Source: Escherichia phage EscoHU1
DNA length: 64,000 nucleotides
Sequence record: NC_133119.1
Strand: one strand, 5' to 3'
The translations under genes were made by a program, and so were the position numbers. Shown in pieces: positions 1-6,501 of this stretch (within the stretch, counting starts at the first letter, position 1; each line of letters opens with the position of its first letter). The notes beneath the pieces were generated by a model, which did not search any database, was not told where the DNA came from, and saw only the letters and a program-made list of their open reading frames with translations.

Positions 1-5
1 CAAGA

Positions 6-209
6 ATGAAAAACGTAAAACATCTTAAGTATCGCTTAATTTACAACGGACGTATGGAAACAGAAGATCTAGCTCAGCTAGCGATCAATTCAGATGAAGT
101 TACAGTTCGTGCTTTGTCCATCGAGAAGCTGCGTGCTTCTTACGAAAATCGTATTATGGAATTGGAGGAAAAACTTTATGGACTTCTTGAATCAGAATCT
201 AAAAAGTAA
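6..209 (+). CDS. hypothetical protein (may extend upstream of window)
   Basis: 67-aa ORF from the ORF track; overlaps next ORF in another frame; no motif recognised. Confidence 0.3.
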   Translation: MKNVKHLKYRLIYNGRMETEDLAQLAINSDEVTVRALSIEKLRASYENRIMELEEKLYGLLESESKK

Positions 210-372
210 TTTAGAAAATATGCTTATGGAGCAGTGGAATGCTGGGTATAATGCTGGAGTAGCTACCTGTATTGCTGGTTTGGATATGCTTATTAAGCAA
301 GAGAAGGTTCGCCCAGAAGAAGCAATTCTGCTCCAAAATATCATCGAAGGATTCAAGCAAGGAATCGTATAA
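178..372 (+). CDS. hypothetical small protein
   Basis: ATG at 178 preceded by GGAGGA RBS (163-168); stop overlaps ATG of next gene at 372 (translational coupling); trimmed from ORF-track 94..372. Confidence 0.4.
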   Translation: MDFLNQNLKSNLENMLMEQWNAGYNAGVATCIAGLDMLIKQEKVRPEEAILLQNIIEGFKQGIV

Positions 373-1223
373 TGCGTAGACTAATCGTTGTTAGTGGTGC
401 AGGTTTGAGTGTAGATAGTGGTGTTCGTGCTTTCCGTACTGATACTGCTAGTGGGAAATCCTTGTGGGATGAGTACGATCTAGAGGAAGTATGTAGCTTG
501 CCTAACTTTGAAGCTGGCTTCCGTCGCTTCTGTGGTGAAGATGACCCTAACTACTTCAGTGCTCGTTTCCCTGGCATTGATGAAGATGGTAACGATCTGT
601 ATCTCAAGACTCATGAGTTCTACAACATGCGTCGTCAGGAATTACAGACTGTTGAGCCTAACATTGCCCATCTGCGAATTGCAGAATGGTTCCAGCGTTA
701 TGGTGCGGATAGCGTGAAGAACTTCACTACTAACGTTGATGACCTTCTGGAACGTGCTGGTATCCCTCGTGATGAAATCATTCACGCTCACGGGTACTTG
801 AAAGAGGTGATCTATCGTCAGGGTCGCAACCAAATCATCGAAGATGTTGGGTATACTGCGATTGCCCCTGAGGATTACGAATGGGTAAAACCAAACGTAA
901 CATTCTTTGGTGAGACGGCTCCGTGGTATATGGGTCAGATTAACCTGTTTGATACACTTACTAGCAATGATATGGTTATTGTAGTAGGTTGTAGCAACCA
1001 AGTAATCGACTTCAACTGGGAGCTATTTCCTGCTGTATGTCGTGGAACTAAGATGATGGTTGTTAACCCACAAGTTCGTTATGACGAACAGCTTGAGTAT
1101 GAGAAACGTGGTGTTACTGTATGGCGTGCTGGAGCTGCCGAAGTTTTTGGTAACAAACAATTCATTGGCCAAGTTGAAGCTTTTATGGAAGGAACTATTT
1201 ATGCACCAGAAAAGCATAGGTGA
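372..1223 (+). CDS. Sir2 (sirtuin)-family NAD-dependent protein, no Zn-ribbon cysteines
   Basis: 283 aa; sirtuin motifs GAGLSVDSGVRAFR, FTTNVDDLLERAG, IHAHGYL (catalytic His), VTFFGE, MVIVVGCS; CxxC zinc-binding pairs absent. Confidence 0.75.
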   Translation: MRRLIVVSGAGLSVDSGVRAFRTDTASGKSLWDEYDLEEVCSLPNFEAGFRRFCGEDDPNYFSARFPGIDEDGNDLYLKTHEFYNMRRQELQTVEPNIAHLRIAEWFQRYGADSVKNFTTNVDDLLERAGIPRDEIIHAHGYLKEVIYRQGRNQIIEDVGYTAIAPEDYEWVKPNVTFFGETAPWYMGQINLFDTLTSNDMVIVVGCSNQVIDFNWELFPAVCRGTKMMVVNPQVRYDEQLEYEKRGVTVWRAGAAEVFGNKQFIGQVEAFMEGTIYAPEKHR

Positions 1224-1383
1224 TCTTTTAGTATGGCCGGACGGTAGTTGGTGCTACCGTTTCGAATTTGCTACCGATGACTTCTCATGGAAGAGTGATG
1301 ATTTCTGTGTTATCTACGAAGATACAGCAGAATGGAAAGAATTCCTGATTAAGGAGGGAGAATATGGTGAAGAAGATTTTTAA
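1201..1383 (+). CDS. hypothetical small protein
   Basis: internal ATG of ORF-track 1060..1383 chosen to avoid long overlap; weak GGAAGG RBS. Confidence 0.35.
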   Translation: MHQKSIGDLLVWPDGSWCYRFEFATDDFSWKSDDFCVIYEDTAEWKEFLIKEGEYGEEDF

Positions 1384-1549
1384 GGGTATCTGGAAAGGTC
1401 TAGTATGGTTTGTCAACCTAATTGGTGTGATTACCATTTATTCTCTGTTCCTATCTGTTATATGGGGTAAAGGTGAACTGAAGGTTCCAGTTCCTTTTAC
1501 TGATGAAGTTAAAGTCTGGACGTGGGATGCTACTGGTGGAAATAAGTAA
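1364..1549 (+). CDS. small membrane protein
   Basis: 61 aa; strong RBS AAGGAGGGAG before ATG; hydrophobic helix LVWFVNLIGVITIYSLFLSVIW. Confidence 0.5.
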   Translation: MVKKIFKGIWKGLVWFVNLIGVITIYSLFLSVIWGKGELKVPVPFTDEVKVWTWDATGGNK

Positions 1550-2042
1550 TACTCCTGTGATTTTCCTGGATATTGATGGGGTGCTCAATTCGAGCATCTC
1601 TCACCATCATGCCCCAGATAATGAAAAGCTGTTCTTTGGCAGTGATTGGGTTTATAAACCATTACTCCAGGCTTTTCAGAACTTCCTTAAACCTTCTCCA
1701 ATAATGATTGTTGGGGTATCTTCATGGTTTTCTGTACGAAACGAGATGGAGAACGTTCAGATTATGACCGGGCTCGGTTTGATCGATCGTTTCCTTGGTA
1801 CAACAGATTTTACTGGAGGTGGTTTATCTCGAGGTAATTCTGTCTTACGTTTCGTAGAAAAACATAAGCTCAAGCATTGGTGCGTCCTAGATGATGCTGG
1901 TGCTATGATGTACCAATTTCCTACTGTTATTGTAAATGGCAGGACTGGAATAAACCTTCAAGATTTAAATGCTATCAGCTATATGCTGGAATTTAGTCCA
2001 GATCTTGAAATGTGTAAGGCTCTTCAGAAACTTAAGGTATAA
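1527..2042 (+). CDS. HAD-superfamily phosphatase-like protein
   Basis: N-terminal VIFLDIDGVLN (HAD motif I DxDG); start uncertain (ATG 1503 or 1527). Confidence 0.5.
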   Translation: MLLVEISNTPVIFLDIDGVLNSSISHHHAPDNEKLFFGSDWVYKPLLQAFQNFLKPSPIMIVGVSSWFSVRNEMENVQIMTGLGLIDRFLGTTDFTGGGLSRGNSVLRFVEKHKLKHWCVLDDAGAMMYQFPTVIVNGRTGINLQDLNAISYMLEFSPDLEMCKALQKLKV

Positions 2043-2044
2043 GC

Positions 2045-2473
2045 ATGTTCAATAATATTTTCATGAAAGAGGTAAATCCTATGCTTCTCAACTTCTGGTG
2101 CTCTCTCCCTAATGGTATGTATAATGAAACCATCAATCTGCTCAAGATTTGGTGTGAGAATAACGATATCTTCTTATCCTTTAAAGGCCCGCTAGAGGAA
2201 GCTCCGTGTATTGGAGTTAGCGTGGATTTAGGGGAGGGAGTAGAAGAGATTGTAGACTGGAAAGAACTCGATGAAATGGGTCTGGTTTTTGCCTTGAACC
2301 ATAAGCTGTTTATGCCTGCAAATCACCGTCTTATTGTAAATTATCGCACTGGTGAAGCTCCTGCTTTCCAGGTAAATGAACGTGAGGGCTGGTCATATTC
2401 GCCCGAGGAAGTAAATGAGGGGATTCAGAAACTTCGTCGTTTCGGATATATGATCCCAGGTTTAACTGCTTAA
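2045..2473 (+). CDS. hypothetical protein, tandem paralog 1
   Basis: 142 aa; shares W-x-EL-x2-MGL-x-ALN ... TGE ... PGL pattern with the next ORF. Confidence 0.55.
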   Translation: MFNNIFMKEVNPMLLNFWCSLPNGMYNETINLLKIWCENNDIFLSFKGPLEEAPCIGVSVDLGEGVEEIVDWKELDEMGLVFALNHKLFMPANHRLIVNYRTGEAPAFQVNEREGWSYSPEEVNEGIQKLRRFGYMIPGLTA

Positions 2474-2482
2474 GGAGGCAGA

Positions 2483-2878
2483 ATGGAACAAGTATTTTGG
2501 CGTCAGATAGATCCTAGTTTGGTAGAGCGTGCTGAGGGGCTCCTTGCACGTTGGTTGGGGGTTGACAAGGTTAGTGTAACATTTCCGTTTACTTCTGTAA
2601 CAGACCCTAGTGTAGGTGTCTTTGTGGACGAAAATGAAGATGATGGTTGGGAAGCTGACTGGAATGAATTGTCCAGCATGGGCTTGATTGTTGCCCTCAA
2701 CTTCTCTATATTCCATCCACGTGGCTTAGCCATTACACGTGACCCCGAAACTGGTGAATCCCCTTATCTTTTGCAAGTAGAAGATGATATTTGGGAGTAC
2801 ACCGAAGATATTCTCGAAGAAGCTAAAGGTCAATTAAATCGCATTGGAATCTATGTCCCAGGCCTAAATGATGATTGA
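2483..2878 (+). CDS. hypothetical protein, tandem paralog 2
   Basis: 131 aa; strong RBS AAGGAGG before ATG; paralogous to 2045..2473. Confidence 0.6.
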   Translation: MEQVFWRQIDPSLVERAEGLLARWLGVDKVSVTFPFTSVTDPSVGVFVDENEDDGWEADWNELSSMGLIVALNFSIFHPRGLAITRDPETGESPYLLQVEDDIWEYTEDILEEAKGQLNRIGIYVPGLNDD

Positions 2879-2969
2879 TTTTCATTAGCTCAATCCTGAT
2901 TACCGAGTCAAAATGACTCGGTTTTCTCTGTGCTCAAGGACACTGATAGCACCTTCGGAAAAATTTTAC

Positions 2970-2998
2970 TTGCAGGATGCTCAAAATCTTGATATAAT
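2970..2998 (+). promoter_or_regulatory. sigma70-type early promoter (TTGCAG-17-TATAAT)
   Basis: -35 at 2970-2975, 17-bp spacer, -10 at 2993-2998, AT-rich downstream. Confidence 0.6.
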
Positions 2999-3494
2999 AT
3001 TTATATTGAATTGAGAGACATTAGTAAAAATTGATTTTGCTAATTTTTCTTGTTTACAATCCGCAATACGGAACAGTTAGGCTGCCCCATTAAGGGTTGT
3101 TTTAACTATTACTAGTGTTTATACTGCATTAGTTAATTATCAATTAAGTGATCTGCGTACCCTGAATTCGGAAAGGTAAATCCAAACCGTGCATATTTAG
3201 CTCGTTATATAGGCAGAGTTTTATATGGGGGTGCGAACGAAAAGAGCAGCGAATGGTGACACGTCCAGTAGCCACCTACCAATAGGATAGTGAGGGCAAT
3301 CAGAATCGGCTTAGCGGCCAATGACCTAGGTTCTGATCTGGATAAGAGTTAAGAGAGCGCAGCACTGAGGTATGATAACTTATTCATACTGCTTGATGAT
3401 GATTAATGTTTGTGTAAATGGTAGTAATAGTTGTTCTATTCTTCTGAATAGTCCTAAAGAAAGATATCCGAATAACCAACATAGGAGTATTGTT

Positions 3495-6284
3495 GTGTTC
3501 TCAATCCTACAAGGTCACGCAGGATTTTCCAGAGATAAAGCCACTGGCATCTGGAAAGAGATCAAAGTGGAAGATTACACCTTTGCAAAGCGATTCTCTA
3601 AAGAGCATCCAGAAGGTAAACCAGCTTCCATGCCCTTCAAATTTGATGTACTTGAAGAACTTGACCCGCAAAACCTTGCTGAAATGTTACCTATCATGCG
3701 TCGTCTTACCAAAGACCCGCATATTGTAGCTATTCGTGGTAAATGTTTAGCCCCAAAAGATAATGTGCGTCGTACCAGGGGAAACTTTAACGTATCCAAT
3801 CCTAGTCATATTATTGCTATGGACGTGGATGGTATTGTAGATACTGGTGGTTATGACAAGTTTAATCTTGTTGGCATGGCACGTCATATTATTAAGATGT
3901 TGAATAGTATTAGCGAGGATATGTTTCCTCTTGATGCAGGGTTTATTGCCCATGCATCGTCTTCGGCTGGATTAAAACCAGGTATCCGAATGCACTTAAT
4001 GCTAGAATCTAATGTCAAGGTAACGCAGGGACAGTTAAAGTTCTTATTTACATCTATCAATGACAGTAGTAAGCAAAAGTATGGCTTTGATATTGCTGAC
4101 TTAGCTTATTATTCTTCTGTTCAGCTTCACTATTTTGCAGATCCCTTATTTGATGATGGTATAGTCGATCCGTTTAAAGCGGAGAATAAACCACGTCTTG
4201 TATATGTTAAGGGTTCGAAGGTGAATCTACCTAATAACCTAGTTGACTTTGAAACAACTAGAGGTGAGTTTAAAGAAGAGTTCTACTCCTTACTTGATCA
4301 AATTAAAGGCAAGAAGGCTGCATCTGATAAAGTGGAAGAAACCATCAGCGAACTAGAAGAAGCTGAGGATGGAGTGTACCTGCGTATTATCCCAAAACTT
4401 TATCACAGAGCGTTAGAAGATGGTGTTGACTTTACGTGGTTAGAACGTGAGATTAAACCAGCTTTATCTGAGTATATTGCGACTAAAGATAATAGTCGTA
4501 ATATTCAAGATTACTTTAATAACGGTCGTAAGCAGGCTCTCAAAGCCTTTGTAAATAACTCCAAACGTGAGATTCCACCAAACTTAAAAGGTGTACCATT
4601 AAAACGTCTAGACACAGATTCTCCACCAGAAGTTCCGTACCTGAAAATTAACATTGTACCCCCAAAAGGACATTTAACATTTGTTAAGGCAAGTCTTGGT
4701 ACGGGTAAAACTACAGCAGTAACTAAGTGGCTAGATGCAGGTGTTCTTCCAGGAAACTTTATTGCAATCACAAATACTAGGGCACTTGTATCTTCTAACG
4801 CGAAGAAATTCGGTGCTGGTCAGTATGATAAGTCAGTTGATATGCTGAACTTCAAACGTGGTGCCATTGATCGTATGTCTTCAACTATTCACTCTATCCA
4901 TAAGTTCAAGAGCTTTGTGGGTCAGATTGATACGATCTTTATTGATGAATGTGACGCAGTAATGAATGATCTGTTATTCGCTCCGGTTGTTAAAAACCGT
5001 CGTGAATGTATTCAGGTTCTTCGTGATATCCTTATTACTGCTAAAACTGTTATCTTATCCGATGGTGATATCAGTGCAGAAACGATTGAAGCCTATGGTT
5101 CTTTGATTGATTTTGATAAACCAGTCGCATTTTATAATCACCACCGTAAAATGCTGGCGAAAGCTCATGCTTATGAATTCCCTGATGAATCCAGTATTTG
5201 GGTTGCACTTCAAACATCTTTAGAGATGGGGGAGAAATCAATCCTAGTATCTGACTGTGGCCCGGATGAACTGAATGAGAAGGGAATGGCATTACGTCGT
5301 AATACTGGTGCGTTAGTTAAAGAAATTCACTCAAACTCTACGTCTGATGTAGATATCCGACGTATTCTGGATTATACAACTAATGAGCTAATTGATCAAC
5401 AGATTGATTGTTTATTATGTAGTCCATCTGTAACGAGTGGTGTTGACTTTAACTATTTTGATAACGTATTCGTAATCACTAGAACCTCAAACCAAGCGCC
5501 AAACATGCGTTTTCAAGCAATCAGGCGCGACCGTGGTGCTCAGAACATTTATTATTTTATTGATAAATCTACGAGTGGATTCTCTGCGGGTTCCGAGCAA
5601 TATAATATTGACGAGGGTTGGATTGAGTTAGCTCAGCAACTGTACGCACGCCGTCGTGAGCTGGAATCTAGAAACTATACCAGTACTTTGCGTTATTATC
5701 TTCTCGATCAAGGTGCAACTATTGATATCTTCAGTGAAAGCTGGGGGACTATCGAAGGTGCAGGCAAAGAGTATACAGAAGAGCGAATCAAAGCTATTCT
5801 GCACTCAACTCCTGAATATTGCGCACCACGTCATGCAGATGCCTATGAAGCCAAGTTACTTCTGGTTCGCTATTATCATCTGGATTCTATTAAAGATGTA
5901 ACAGTGGAACACGTTGAACAGTATATCAAGGATAAACCGAATGATAGAGCTGCATTTTTCCATAAGATGCACGAGATGTTCTGGGAAGATATCAAGAAGT
6001 GTTCAAACGTAACAATCAAACCTTTTATTGAAGCTCTTAAGAATAAGAAGAAGGATTTCTTCCTTAAGACAGGTCAGAGTGCTAACCCAAAATATGCTCG
6101 TATGTATCTTGGCATGATGGGTATCGGTAAAGATCTGGATACGGAAAAGATTGTGGACTGGTACAGAACTTACTGTAAGATCGAATGTATGCCGATTCCA
6201 GTTAAGTTTATGACAGATGAAGAACGTCAGATGCATGAGGAAGCTCTTGCTGAATTGGGAGCTAGAAATGACAGTGAAGAATAA
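3495..6284 (+). CDS. large replication protein: N-terminal primase-like region plus helicase-type ATPase (origin-binding-protein-like)
   Basis: ORF-track 3372..6284; likely GTG start at 3495 after AGGAG (3484-3488); Walker A SLGTGKTT, DExD-like IFIDECD; N-terminal AMDVDG / AHASSSAG. Confidence 0.7.
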   Translation: MFSILQGHAGFSRDKATGIWKEIKVEDYTFAKRFSKEHPEGKPASMPFKFDVLEELDPQNLAEMLPIMRRLTKDPHIVAIRGKCLAPKDNVRRTRGNFNVSNPSHIIAMDVDGIVDTGGYDKFNLVGMARHIIKMLNSISEDMFPLDAGFIAHASSSAGLKPGIRMHLMLESNVKVTQGQLKFLFTSINDSSKQKYGFDIADLAYYSSVQLHYFADPLFDDGIVDPFKAENKPRLVYVKGSKVNLPNNLVDFETTRGEFKEEFYSLLDQIKGKKAASDKVEETISELEEAEDGVYLRIIPKLYHRALEDGVDFTWLEREIKPALSEYIATKDNSRNIQDYFNNGRKQALKAFVNNSKREIPPNLKGVPLKRLDTDSPPEVPYLKINIVPPKGHLTFVKASLGTGKTTAVTKWLDAGVLPGNFIAITNTRALVSSNAKKFGAGQYDKSVDMLNFKRGAIDRMSSTIHSIHKFKSFVGQIDTIFIDECDAVMNDLLFAPVVKNRRECIQVLRDILITAKTVILSDGDISAETIEAYGSLIDFDKPVAFYNHHRKMLAKAHAYEFPDESSIWVALQTSLEMGEKSILVSDCGPDELNEKGMALRRNTGALVKEIHSNSTSDVDIRRILDYTTNELIDQQIDCLLCSPSVTSGVDFNYFDNVFVITRTSNQAPNMRFQAIRRDRGAQNIYYFIDKSTSGFSAGSEQYNIDEGWIELAQQLYARRRELESRNYTSTLRYYLLDQGATIDIFSESWGTIEGAGKEYTEERIKAILHSTPEYCAPRHADAYEAKLLLVRYYHLDSIKDVTVEHVEQYIKDKPNDRAAFFHKMHEMFWEDIKKCSNVTIKPFIEALKNKKKDFFLKTGQSANPKYARMYLGMMGIGKDLDTEKIVDWYRTYCKIECMPIPVKFMTDEERQMHEEALAELGARNDSEE

Positions 6285-6501
6285 AAAGTGGGAGACAAGG
6301 AAGTTTCCCGTAAAAGAACGTAAAACTTCTGTTTACGATACTGCGGAGAAACTATGTAGGGTTGTACCACCTCGTCTCGCTGGTATCCCTAATGTCTCCA
6401 TATGGTTACTTAAACAACGGAAGACTCGTGTGTCTCTTCGCATTGGCTTTGAGTTAGATAAAGTCTATGCTGAGCTTGCTTCTTTGCTCAAAGAATCGTA
6501 A
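6268..6501 (+). CDS. hypothetical small basic protein
   Basis: internal ATG of ORF-track 6217..6501; overlaps stop of upstream gene by 17 nt; K/R rich. Confidence 0.4.
   Translation: MTVKNKKWETRKFPVKERKTSVYDTAEKLCRVVPPRLAGIPNVSIWLLKQRKTRVSLRIGFELDKVYAELASLLKES

Follow-up and report, generated by a model that had tools for sequence, protein, structure and literature searches.

The genome of Escherichia phage EscoHU1 (NC_133119.1) encodes a Sir2-family protein without zinc-binding cysteines at positions 372..1223 (+) of the window, the 64,000-nt stretch of DNA that was analyzed. Judged by its sequence and its structural model, the protein resembles protein deacylases more than ADP-ribosyltransferases. 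As the best explanation, to which we tentatively give somewhat less than an even chance, we propose that it may function as an accessory CobB-like NAD-dependent protein deacylase early in infection.

Results

A Sir2-family gene in a T5-like phage

The Sir2-like gene is a 283-aa ORF, the ortholog of T5.102 and a member of PHROG 2162, and its ATG start codon and the stop codon of the preceding ORF overlap as TAATG. The initial annotation had called the protein sirtuin-like, and profile searches support this assignment. The protein matches the Pfam SIR2 profile PF02146 (E=1.4e-21) with 77.7 bits, above the cutoff of 24, and the PHROG 2162 'Sir2' profile with E=8e-107. Its best sequence match among solved structures is E. 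coli CobB (1s5p, E=1.7e-16), and the best solved relatives by sequence, namely CobB, Sir2Af1/Af2, SIRT5 and Sir2Tm, are all deacylases. Because of the Pfam, PHROG 2162 and CobB 1s5p scores, the Sir2-family match is, at the sequence level, far above chance. Seven NCBIfam CobB/deacylase models also matched the protein, all of them under their cutoffs, with a top score of 87.7 bits vs 243 (NF001753).

The gene resides in a phage genome, as had been proposed, given that bases 1-6500 of the window are 98-99% identical to genomes of Epseptimavirus (Demerecviridae, T5-like). These include the genomes of the Salmonella phages fuchur, Stitch and JNwz02, where the gene is annotated as Sir2-like; these copies and T5.102 represent the same gene in the same place and operon as the EscoHU1 copy. 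A total of 977 phage records contain a homolog, which in many cases carries the label Sir2-like or NAD-dependent deacetylase. When ten longer relatives were scanned with Pfam for informative domain fusions, the additional matches were limited to a second stretch of Sir2 or a WG repeat, and cluster look-ups for ten distant relatives yielded no names.

The protein is 96-99% identical within Epseptimavirus but only 52% identical to T5's copy, whereas identities of 91-94% to the T5 counterparts are seen for the neighbouring orf6, for the HAD gene and for the origin-binding gene, which belongs to the next operon. This disparity in sequence indicates that T5's genus and Epseptimavirus carry distinct Sir2 alleles. 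The Sir2-like gene is under purifying selection, with pN/pS values mostly of 0.1-0.4 in close relatives that have synonymous differences. Phage DT57C exhibits a natural deletion of Sir2 and the neighbouring HAD gene, with only a chimeric fragment remaining. Since DT57C has naturally lost the gene, it is dispensable for lytic growth.

Catalytic and substrate-binding motifs

The sirtuin motifs quoted in the initial annotation (GAGLSVDSGVRAFR, TTNVDDLLERAG, IHAHGYL, FFGE and VVGCS) are all present at the expected positions. Residue invariance was assessed in 48 diverse homologs, down to 56% identity, and cysteines and single columns were surveyed in 121 homologs of at least 53% identity. The Rossmann NAD-binding motifs (GAGxS, xxNxD, GxS and N) and the catalytic His are all kept and invariant in the 48 homologs. 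In the NAD-binding loop GAGLSVDSGVRAFR (aa 9-22; 396..437, +), read from the sequence, G9, A10, G11, S13, S16, F21 and R22 are invariant in this set, as are N121, D123, H140, F178, F179, E181, G206, S208 and N232 elsewhere in the protein. The TTNVDDLLERAG motif at aa 119-130 begins with TTNVD (aa 119-123; 726..740, +), the equivalent of TQNxD, whose residues are also invariant in the 48 homologs; Thr120 takes the place of Gln, and Asn121 and Asp123 are kept. The catalytic residue His140 (789..791, +), the second His of IHAHG in IHAHGYL (aa 137-143), aligns with the His of CobB HMHG and is invariant.

The substrate-binding elements can likewise be followed in the alignment with CobB. The FFGE substrate-binding loop (aa 178-181; 903..914, +) aligns with CobB WFGE. 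GCSNQVID (aa 206-213; 987..1010, +), which overlaps VVGCS (aa 204-208), aligns with CobB 'GTSGHVYP' as the equivalent of GTS...VxP. Its residues G206, S208, V211 and I212 are invariant in the 48 homologs, and the groove Pro is replaced by Asp or Asn (D213 here, Asn in the consensus). FYNMRR (aa 83-88; 618..635, +), which contains Tyr84 and Arg87, aligns with CobB 'FYNARR', and F83, Y84, R87 and R88 are invariant in the same set. Y84/R87 align with CobB Y92/R95, which we take to be equivalent to SIRT5 Y102/R105, the pair by which class III sirtuins bind acidic acyl groups. Because the Tyr84/Arg87 pair is retained, the sequence suggests acidic acyl groups such as succinyl, plus acetyl, as substrates.

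Cys41 (492..494, +) is the counterpart of CobB Ala76 by alignment, and position 41 is Cys in 121/121 homologs. The sites mutated in engineered CobB, which were taken from the 6rx* entry titles and mapped via the CobB alignment, are A76, I131 and V187; they align with C41, V122 and V176, respectively. Segment lengths define a variable insertion (aa 47-79; 510..608, +) within the helical portion of the small domain; it comprises 33 residues here vs 6 in most distant relatives, is modelled with a pLDDT of 83-86 and is mostly devoid of consensus residues in the 48 homologs. Overall, the phage protein has the His, Asn, Asp, FGE loop and Tyr/Arg pair in common with CobB (PDB 1S5P, 6RXJ-6RXS), a class III deacetylase/desuccinylase. 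However, it differs from CobB in the absence of the zinc cysteines, the replacement of the TQNID Gln by Thr, of Ala76 by the invariant Cys41 and of VYP by VI(D/N), and a helical module that is longer by about 27 residues.

A zinc-ribbon module without cysteines

The protein contains four cysteines (41, 54, 207 and 223) and no CxxC pair. The usual location of the sirtuin CxxC...CxxC corresponds to the segment aa 141-177 (792..902, +) between the catalytic His and FGE, a degenerate zinc-ribbon module that contains no Cys. Thus, the four-cysteine zinc site is absent here, just as the initial annotation had noticed. The zinc segment exhibits no conserved Cys column in the 121 homologs, and because of this, the cysteine loss is, to judge from the alignment, a property of the clade and not an accident of the EscoHU1 copy. 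Among 147 cluster representatives, Thr at the Gln position of TQNxD tracks missing zinc cysteines (36 vs 7), and Gln at this position tracks the four cysteines (80 vs 8).

The AlphaFold2 model of the protein (pLDDT 88.4, pTM 0.87) adopts a two-domain sirtuin fold. The top Foldseek match is CobB with bound acyl-peptide (E=7e-15, TMt 0.83), followed by Sir2Af1, SIRT2, Hst2 and SIRT5, and no defence-type Sir2 is found among the top 50 matches. The fold alignment to CobB has an identity of 25-27%. In the model, the zinc-less module forms a three-stranded sheet (strands 141-150, 153-158 and 172-176) with a pLDDT of 92-95. A zinc ribbon devoid of its four cysteines is therefore predicted by modelling to keep its β-sheet scaffold.

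Operon organization

The operon that contains the Sir2-like gene, an accessory early gene, is flanked by nrdD and the replication-origin-binding gene. The gene order is nrdD, small ORFs, Sir2, two small ORFs, HAD, two DUF7415 genes, a terminator and the origin-binding protein. Upstream of Sir2, the operon contains two small ORFs (6-209 and 178-372, +; PHROGs 5236 and 5827), which are annotated in fuchur and Stitch. The two small ORFs between Sir2 and HAD (1201-1383 and 1364-1549, +; PHROGs 5116 and 11166) have no Pfam match. They are followed by a gene for a HAD-family phosphatase of the 'Swiss Army Knife RNA repair' type, HAD_SAK_2 (1527..2042, +; PF18143, E=3.2e-19), which is the T5.105 ortholog. 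HAD_SAK_2 lies downstream of Sir2 in 28/31 Demerecviridae loci, and the other 3/31 carry Sir2 without HAD. The tandem DUF7415 paralogs, orthologs of T5.106 and T5.107 (2045-2473 and 2483-2878, +; PF24187, E=2.6e-35 and 4.2e-28), are present in 31/31 of these loci.

A terminator-like hairpin found in the sequence (2902..2922, +), with a 9-bp stem and then a T-run, probably ends the operon. Stitch has an annotated terminator in this intergenic gap as well, though some 100 bases downstream of the hairpin position, and T5 has one behind the equivalent gene. Besides Sir2, the operon has seven ORFs, and a Pfam scan of these and of the gene that follows downstream found HAD_SAK_2, DUF7415 and the origin-binding protein and did not detect a macrodomain, HerA, SLOG, pAgo or TIR. 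Pfam scanning of the T5-type operon did not detect RNA ligase, 2H or cyclic-phosphodiesterase domains either. The nine scanned neighbours of a Phapecoctavirus homolog contain only DUFs in Pfam, so this lineage gives no clue from context.

NAD-related genes in the same and other lineages

In the phage lineage of EscoHU1, an NAD-dependent DNA ligase is encoded downstream of the Sir2-like gene, at a distance of about 8.6 kb. Outside the window, the lineage also harbors a NadR and PnuC pair, for which NAD+ rebuilding has been shown experimentally (PMC13464706). In four other lineages, NAPRTase-family genes are found at a distance of 0.2-7 kb from the homologs, and three of these lineages also have NMNAT-Nudix genes within 8 kb of the sirtuin homolog. 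A tblastn search of the 64,000-nt window with Nampt and NMNAT-Nudix gave no significant match. Because homologs in other lineages adjoin NAD-reconstitution genes, a link of the Sir2-like protein to the phage NAD economy is plausible. The NAD genes nearby fit an enzyme by which NAD+ is consumed and nicotinamide set free.

Discussion

What reaction would such a sirtuin catalyze in an infected cell? We envisage a compact CobB-like sirtuin that would be an active NAD+-dependent enzyme with standard sirtuin chemistry. It would cleave nicotinamide off NAD+ and move the ADP-ribose to the acyl oxygen of an acyl-lysine. Host or phage proteins may thus be deacylated early in infection, with acyl-lysine as the presumed substrate. 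The deacylase proposal is favored by the nearest sequence and fold relatives, which are all lysine deacylases, by the conservation of catalytic and pocket residues and by purifying selection. It is opposed by the change of the TQNxD Gln to Thr and of the groove Pro to Asp/Asn, by the absence of the zinc cysteines and by scores far under all CobB-type NCBIfam cutoffs. The operon shared with HAD_SAK_2 and the co-deletion of the two genes in DT57C also count against deacylation, as Iyer et al. read this pairing as RNA repair. A literature search found no measured activity or experiments for the T5-type Sir2 clade, and the Sir2La literature offered no usable precedent for an active zinc-less deacylase.

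The gene, its annotation, the loss of the zinc ligands and the HAD neighbour are all already on record. The Sir2/CobB proteins of the Vibrio phages KVP40, phiSt2 and phiGrn1 were described in 2016 as devoid of zinc ligands and were discussed together with phage Nampt/Nmnat genes (PMC5107563). Related Vibrio phage records match the EscoHU1 protein at 32-35% identity. Nevertheless, the KVP40, phiSt2 and phiGrn1 proteins are distant sequences from T4-like jumbo genomes and have retained an 'INP' proline motif, which the EscoHU1 protein has lost (PMC5107563). The pairing of a T5-type sirtuin with a HAD phosphatase was reported by Iyer et al. 2022 with a prediction of RNA repair (PMC9503650), and the EscoHU1 locus has their type 3 arrangement, in which a sirtuin and SAK-HAD occur in a conserved neighbourhood.

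According to that prediction, the sirtuin and HAD_SAK_2 would rescue tRNAs cut by host anticodon nucleases, with HAD_SAK_2 processing RNA or ADP-ribose phosphates. We regard RNA-end repair as unlikely for the EscoHU1 protein. The T5-like phage SP15 is the prototype of the sirtuin and SAK-HAD arrangement (PMC9503650 section 3.7.3), and Tpt1/KptA, which removes RNA 2'-phosphate with NAD+, was proposed as a functional analogue (PMC9503650). However, Tpt1/KptA has an unrelated fold of the ADP-ribosyltransferase superfamily, and the analogy derives from gene neighbourhood only. The bacterial and T4 pathways of tRNA repair are not known to create a 2'-phosphate, which counts against RNA repair, and a phosphate nucleophile has never been shown for any sirtuin. 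The position of HAD_SAK_2 in the Sir2 operon, where two small genes separate it from the upstream Sir2, its presence in 28 of the 31 Demerecviridae loci and its loss together with Sir2 in DT57C favor RNA repair, as do the approximately 30 tRNA genes of the close relative fuchur. Yet the HAD link is limited to this one viral family, where shared ancestry explains the synteny and three loci have Sir2 without HAD. In ten other lineage groups, a HAD match occurs at one locus only, and it is weak (E=2e-4) and 3 kb off. In terms of chemistry, the invariant Tyr84/Arg87 could bind phosphate as well as carboxylate, and a His-activated ribose hydroxyl could in principle perform a second, Tpt1-like step. 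The T5-type operon nonetheless contains no RNA ligase, 2H or cyclic-phosphodiesterase domain, and the ligase that adjoins Sir2 in phages of about 145 kb matches ATP-dependent DNA ligase models.

A different function, which we deem quite unlikely, would be that of an ADP-ribosyltransferase, an NADase or an NAD-linked counter-defence factor that reprograms the host or blunts NAD-based immunity by ADP-ribosylating host proteins or by hydrolysing or sequestering NAD+-derived molecules. NAD-reconstitution genes beside the homologs in several lineages are compatible with this function, and the unusually divergent allele (52% vs 91-94%) is of a kind often seen for host-interface genes. The initial annotation had suggested, as one possibility, interference with NAD-based immunity, for which we saw no support: no PADLOC model matched at E<=1, a result by which a defence-type Sir2 was rejected, in line with the fold matches. 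As far as is known, defence-associated Sir2 NADases also lack a zinc ribbon. ThsA, DSR1/2, Sir2-HerA and short pAgo-Sir2 have a Sir2-type NAD-binding domain in common with the EscoHU1 protein, but the latter is a single-domain protein of 283 aa without a sensor or partner domain and has retained both its small domain and the FGE loop that binds peptide. Furthermore, the phage itself has an NAD-dependent DNA ligase, which would run short of NAD+ if an NADase were active without regulation. Some sirtuins do ADP-ribosylate, as exemplified by SirTM, whose genomic partners are a macrodomain and GcvH-L/LplA2 (PMC4518038). The earlier generalization that zinc-less sirtuins are usually ADP-ribosyltransferases does not hold, as SirTM, the best studied of the ADP-ribosylating classes, keeps its zinc-coordinating domain and has the catalytic His replaced by Gln137, with a conserved Arg as partner (PMC4518038). 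The EscoHU1 protein shares the Sir2 fold and a predicted use of NAD+ with SirTM and is otherwise its opposite, with no zinc cysteines and an invariant His140. A SirTM-type ADP-ribosyltransferase was thus rejected, given the catalytic His and the absence of a macrodomain partner among the operon genes scanned.

The changes of the canonical Gln and Pro and the loss of the zinc cysteines could also be viewed as signs of a catalytically dead or decaying remnant, destabilized by the loss of the zinc site and kept as a binding protein or as neutral cargo, all the more so because the gene is dispensable and DT57C holds only a chimeric fragment. Such decay is highly improbable in our estimation, since the catalytic residues are invariant across 121 homologs from several phage families, homologs persist in 977 phage records, pN/pS in close relatives is mostly well below 1, and the zinc-less module is modelled at high confidence (pLDDT 92-95). 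The clade may have left protein deacylation and turned its NAD+ chemistry to a non-lysine acidic nucleophile, for example an RNA 2'-phosphate in concert with the HAD protein, or it may serve counter-defence within NAD-reconstitution modules. The traits behind this non-deacylase reading are the zinc-less module, Thr in place of Gln, the invariant Cys41, Tyr84/Arg87 and the lost groove proline; we consider it rather improbable as well.

NAD+ is a central battleground between phages and bacteria, in which hosts deplete NAD+ and phages rebuild it via NARP1, NARP2 and NARP3. A conserved sirtuin that is predicted to consume NAD+ occurs in about a thousand phage genomes, often near NAD-rebuilding genes, and because of this wide occurrence and genomic context, its role matters in phage biology. 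If an RNA 2'-phosphate is the true target, this would be the first demonstration of a sirtuin that works on nucleic acid.

Identity and operon context of the phage sirtuin

The plus-strand open reading frame (ORF) at 372-1223 is a real gene that encodes a 283-residue protein, and its membership in the Sir2 family is settled by profile matches to Pfam SIR2 (PF02146; 77.7 bits against a cutoff of 24) and, over the full length of the protein, to PHROG 2162, 'Sir2 (NAD-dependent deacetylase)' (E=8e-107). CobB-type NCBIfam models all match the protein far under their own cutoffs, and the PADLOC defence models yield zero matches to it. The initial annotation described a sirtuin that lacks the zinc-binding CxxC pairs, and this observation is correct: each sirtuin motif that it quoted is found in place, and residues 141-177, which separate catalytic His140 from the FGE loop and in which sirtuins usually bear their two CxxC pairs, include no cysteine. 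The four cysteines of the protein are located at positions 41, 54, 207 and 223.

The gene, its family and its zinc-less variant are each already known. Bases 1-6500 of the window share 98-99% identity with many Epseptimavirus genomes (Demerecviridae, T5-like), such as those of Escherichia phage PECP14 and Salmonella phages JNwz02, fuchur and Stitch, and many of these near-identical records label the gene 'Sir2-like protein' or 'NAD-dependent deacetylase of SIR2 family'. In phage T5, the corresponding position is occupied by the ortholog T5.102. Using tblastn, Sir2 homologs were found in 977 phage records, including T5-like phages, ~137-152 kb phages of Escherichia, Klebsiella, Salmonella and Erwinia hosts, ~250 kb Vibrio phages and jumbo phages. 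According to Skliros et al. 2016, vibriophages KVP40, phiSt2 and phiGrn1 encode Sir2/CobB proteins without the zinc ligand; the authors proposed that these proteins deacetylate host Acs and remarked on the presence of the gene in T5 (PMC5107563). A phage sirtuin clade was defined by Iyer et al. 2022 (PMC9503650). The literature searched yielded neither biochemical nor genetic work on the T5-type Sir2 protein. The gene is also carried by GenBank MG065642.1, MG065656.1 and MG065646.1, named 'Campylobacter phage A148', 'C3' and 'D1' with C. jejuni as the host. These host labels look doubtful: A148 is 98.4% identical to the window across 6.5 kb, in line with Salmonella and E. coli T5-like phages, and C3 and D1 show the match pattern of ~137-146-kb enterobacterial phages.

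The Sir2 gene resides in an early replication and nucleotide-metabolism block, flanked by nrdD on one side and the origin-binding protein gene on the other, with an NAD-dependent DNA ligase gene ~8.6 kb downstream. It overlaps both neighbours: its ATG shares bases with the preceding ORF's stop codon (TAATG), and its 3' end extends into the following small ORF. No strong promoter was seen inside the operon, and a terminator-like hairpin with a 9-bp stem is located at 2902-2922; thus, the genes form one unit in the order of orf6 and orf178 (small ORFs at 6-209 and 178-372), Sir2, two small ORFs, a HAD_SAK_2 phosphatase gene (1527-2042, plus strand; PF18143, E=3e-19) and tandem DUF7415 paralogs (2045-2473 and 2483-2878, plus strand). 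The order is identical in T5. Beyond the hairpin, the long intergenic region from 2930 to 3490 contains weak promoter-like sites. The mechanical ORF of the replication-origin-binding protein spans 3372-6284 (plus strand, 970 residues), and relatives have later annotated starts, which map by homology to 3495 (fuchur and Stitch) and to about 3396 (JNwz02).

Zinc-less state and active site

The absence of zinc cysteines is, as judged from alignment, a trait of the clade, since the zinc segment contains no column with a conserved cysteine among 121 homologs of at least 53% identity. A whole-library HMMER search gave 147 cluster representatives at the 50%-identity level; the closest relatives in this set are devoid of the zinc cysteines, whereas more distant ones retain the normal CxxC...CxxC arrangement. 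Cysteine loss is accompanied by G(C/S/A)S in place of GTS and by a change at the Gln position of TQNxD, which is Thr in 36 representatives without cysteines versus 7 with them and Gln in 8 versus 80. One cysteine-bearing relative is encoded on a contig that looks phage-like, with many small ORFs on the same strand, suggesting that phages also carry the wider subfamily, one branch of which lost the cysteines. The AlphaFold2 model is confident (pLDDT 88.4, pTM 0.87) and still shows three strands (pLDDT 92-95) where the zinc module once was, suggesting that the predicted fold is independent of zinc.

The solved structures closest by sequence are E. coli CobB, Sir2Af1/Af2, SIRT5 and Sir2Tm, and those closest by fold are CobB with bound acyl-peptides (TMt 0.83), followed by Sir2Af1, SIRT2, Hst2 and SIRT5. 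These sequence and fold relatives are all lysine deacylases, and no defence-type Sir2 appears in the best 50 fold matches. Across 48 diverse homologs, the NAD loop (G9, A10, G11, S13, S16, F21 and R22), N121, D123, catalytic H140, F178/F179/E181, G206/S208 and N232 are invariant. So are Tyr84 and Arg87, which align to CobB Y92 and R95 and correspond to SIRT5 Y102 and R105, the residues that bind the succinyl-lysine carboxylate. Unlike canonical sirtuins, the protein has Thr120 for Gln, has lost the VxP proline (V211-I212-D213) and, at positions 47-79, carries a variable insertion that adds about 27 residues. It also differs from CobB by Cys41, present in 121/121 homologs and aligned to CobB Ala76, which is among the residues mutated in engineered CobB variants (6rx* entries).

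Dispensability and divergence

The Sir2-HAD module is accessory. The viable T5-like phage DT57C has just a 90-residue ORF annotated 'sir2 (defective)' (3468-3740 of its locus L088; NC_027356.1 46493-46765), a chimera in which Sir2 residues 171-233 are joined in frame to HAD residues 128-168. Therefore, by a natural deletion, DT57C has lost Sir2 and the greater part of the HAD gene along with the two small ORFs between them, and has kept both DUF7415 genes. The Sir2 gene shares only 52% identity with its T5 counterpart (L034 10001-10798), versus 91% for orf6, 92% for HAD, 94% for the origin-binding protein and 69-73% for the DUF7415 genes in the same phage pair. Given the contrast with orf6, HAD and the origin-binding gene, the Sir2 allele looks either replaced or fast-diverging.

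The HAD_SAK_2 gene (ortholog of T5.105; window 1527-2042; 4527-5042 and 5142-5648 in comparison loci L001 and L003) is itself labelled 'Sir2 (NAD-dependent deacetylase)' in the PHROG-based RefSeq annotation of fuchur, T5 and others, and matches phrog_18062, a 92-position profile bearing that label. Its product has a HAD fold without a Sir2 domain, and the mislabel may originate in truncated or chimeric ORFs such as that of DT57C.

Genomic association with NAD+ supply

ORFs were called and clustered in 79 IMG/VR loci with Sir2 homologs, and the loci were sorted into lineages. HAD_SAK_2 lies near Sir2 in 28 of the 31 Demerecviridae loci and DUF7415 in all 31. In the ~145-kb phages (13 loci), Sir2 is followed by an ATP-dependent DNA-ligase-type gene (0.2-2 kb downstream) and preceded by a calcineurin-like phosphoesterase gene (0.2-3 kb upstream) and, in nine loci (L019, L022, L023, L045, L048, L057, L058, L060 and L072), by a NAPRTase-family gene 3-7 kb upstream. 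In three additional lineages of jumbo and other phages (L062, L066, L063-L065, L083, L069 and L071), a NAPRTase-family (Nampt-type) gene lies at 0.2-6.4 kb and an NMNAT-Nudix gene at 2-8 kb. Thus, a NAPRTase-family (Nampt/Namat-type) gene occurs 0.2-7 kb from Sir2 in four independent phage lineages, three of which also have NMNAT-Nudix within 8 kb. These are gene types of NARP pathways, and Nampt with NMNAT-Nudix constitutes the gene content of NARP2 NAD+ reconstitution (10.1101/2024.02.11.579819). In the close relative fuchur, a NadR-like NMN adenylyltransferase and a PnuC-like transporter (gp162/gp161; L085 19165-20899) are encoded ~20 kb from Sir2, beyond the window; NadR and PnuC form the NARP3 NAD+ rebuilding pathway, experimentally validated in phage Bas30 (PMC13464706). 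The Epseptimavirus phage type therefore holds an NAD supply route beside its NAD consumers, Sir2 and the NAD-dependent ligase.

Function of the phage sirtuin

What is the biological function of the T5-type Sir2 protein? Iyer et al. 2022 described three contexts for their phage sirtuin clade, one of which pairs the sirtuin with a Swiss-army-knife HAD and is exemplified by Escherichia phage SP15, and predicted KptA-like removal of RNA 2'-phosphates (PMC9503650). A Tpt1-like RNA-repair role together with the HAD phosphatase would suit the Demerecviridae operon, but it is unlikely, because the HAD association is confined to that family apart from one locus with a weak match (E=2e-4) at a distance of 3 kb, and the cross-lineage link is with NAD+ supply genes. 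An ADP-ribosyltransferase, NADase or counter-defence role is improbable. The initial annotation had raised ADP-ribosyl transfer among other activities and stated as a rule that zinc-less sirtuins usually perform it; this rule fails, since the ADP-ribosylating SirTM class is without the catalytic histidine but has kept a domain that coordinates zinc (Rack et al. 2015, PMC4518038), the reverse of the phage protein. An inactive remnant would accord with the loss in DT57C and is very improbable: pN/pS is mostly 0.1-0.4, on small counts, in close relatives with synonymous differences, and together with the invariant catalytic residues it argues for a predicted working enzyme. The remaining probability belongs to roles other than these and the deacylase.

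The best reading, tentative and with somewhat less than an even chance, is that the protein would be a CobB-like lysine deacylase, dependent on NAD+ but not on zinc, with an accessory role early in infection. Across lineages, the most recurrent association of phage Sir2 is with NAD+ supply genes and not RNA-repair genes; this association leaves the use of NAD+ unspecified and is consistent with an NAD-spending enzyme.
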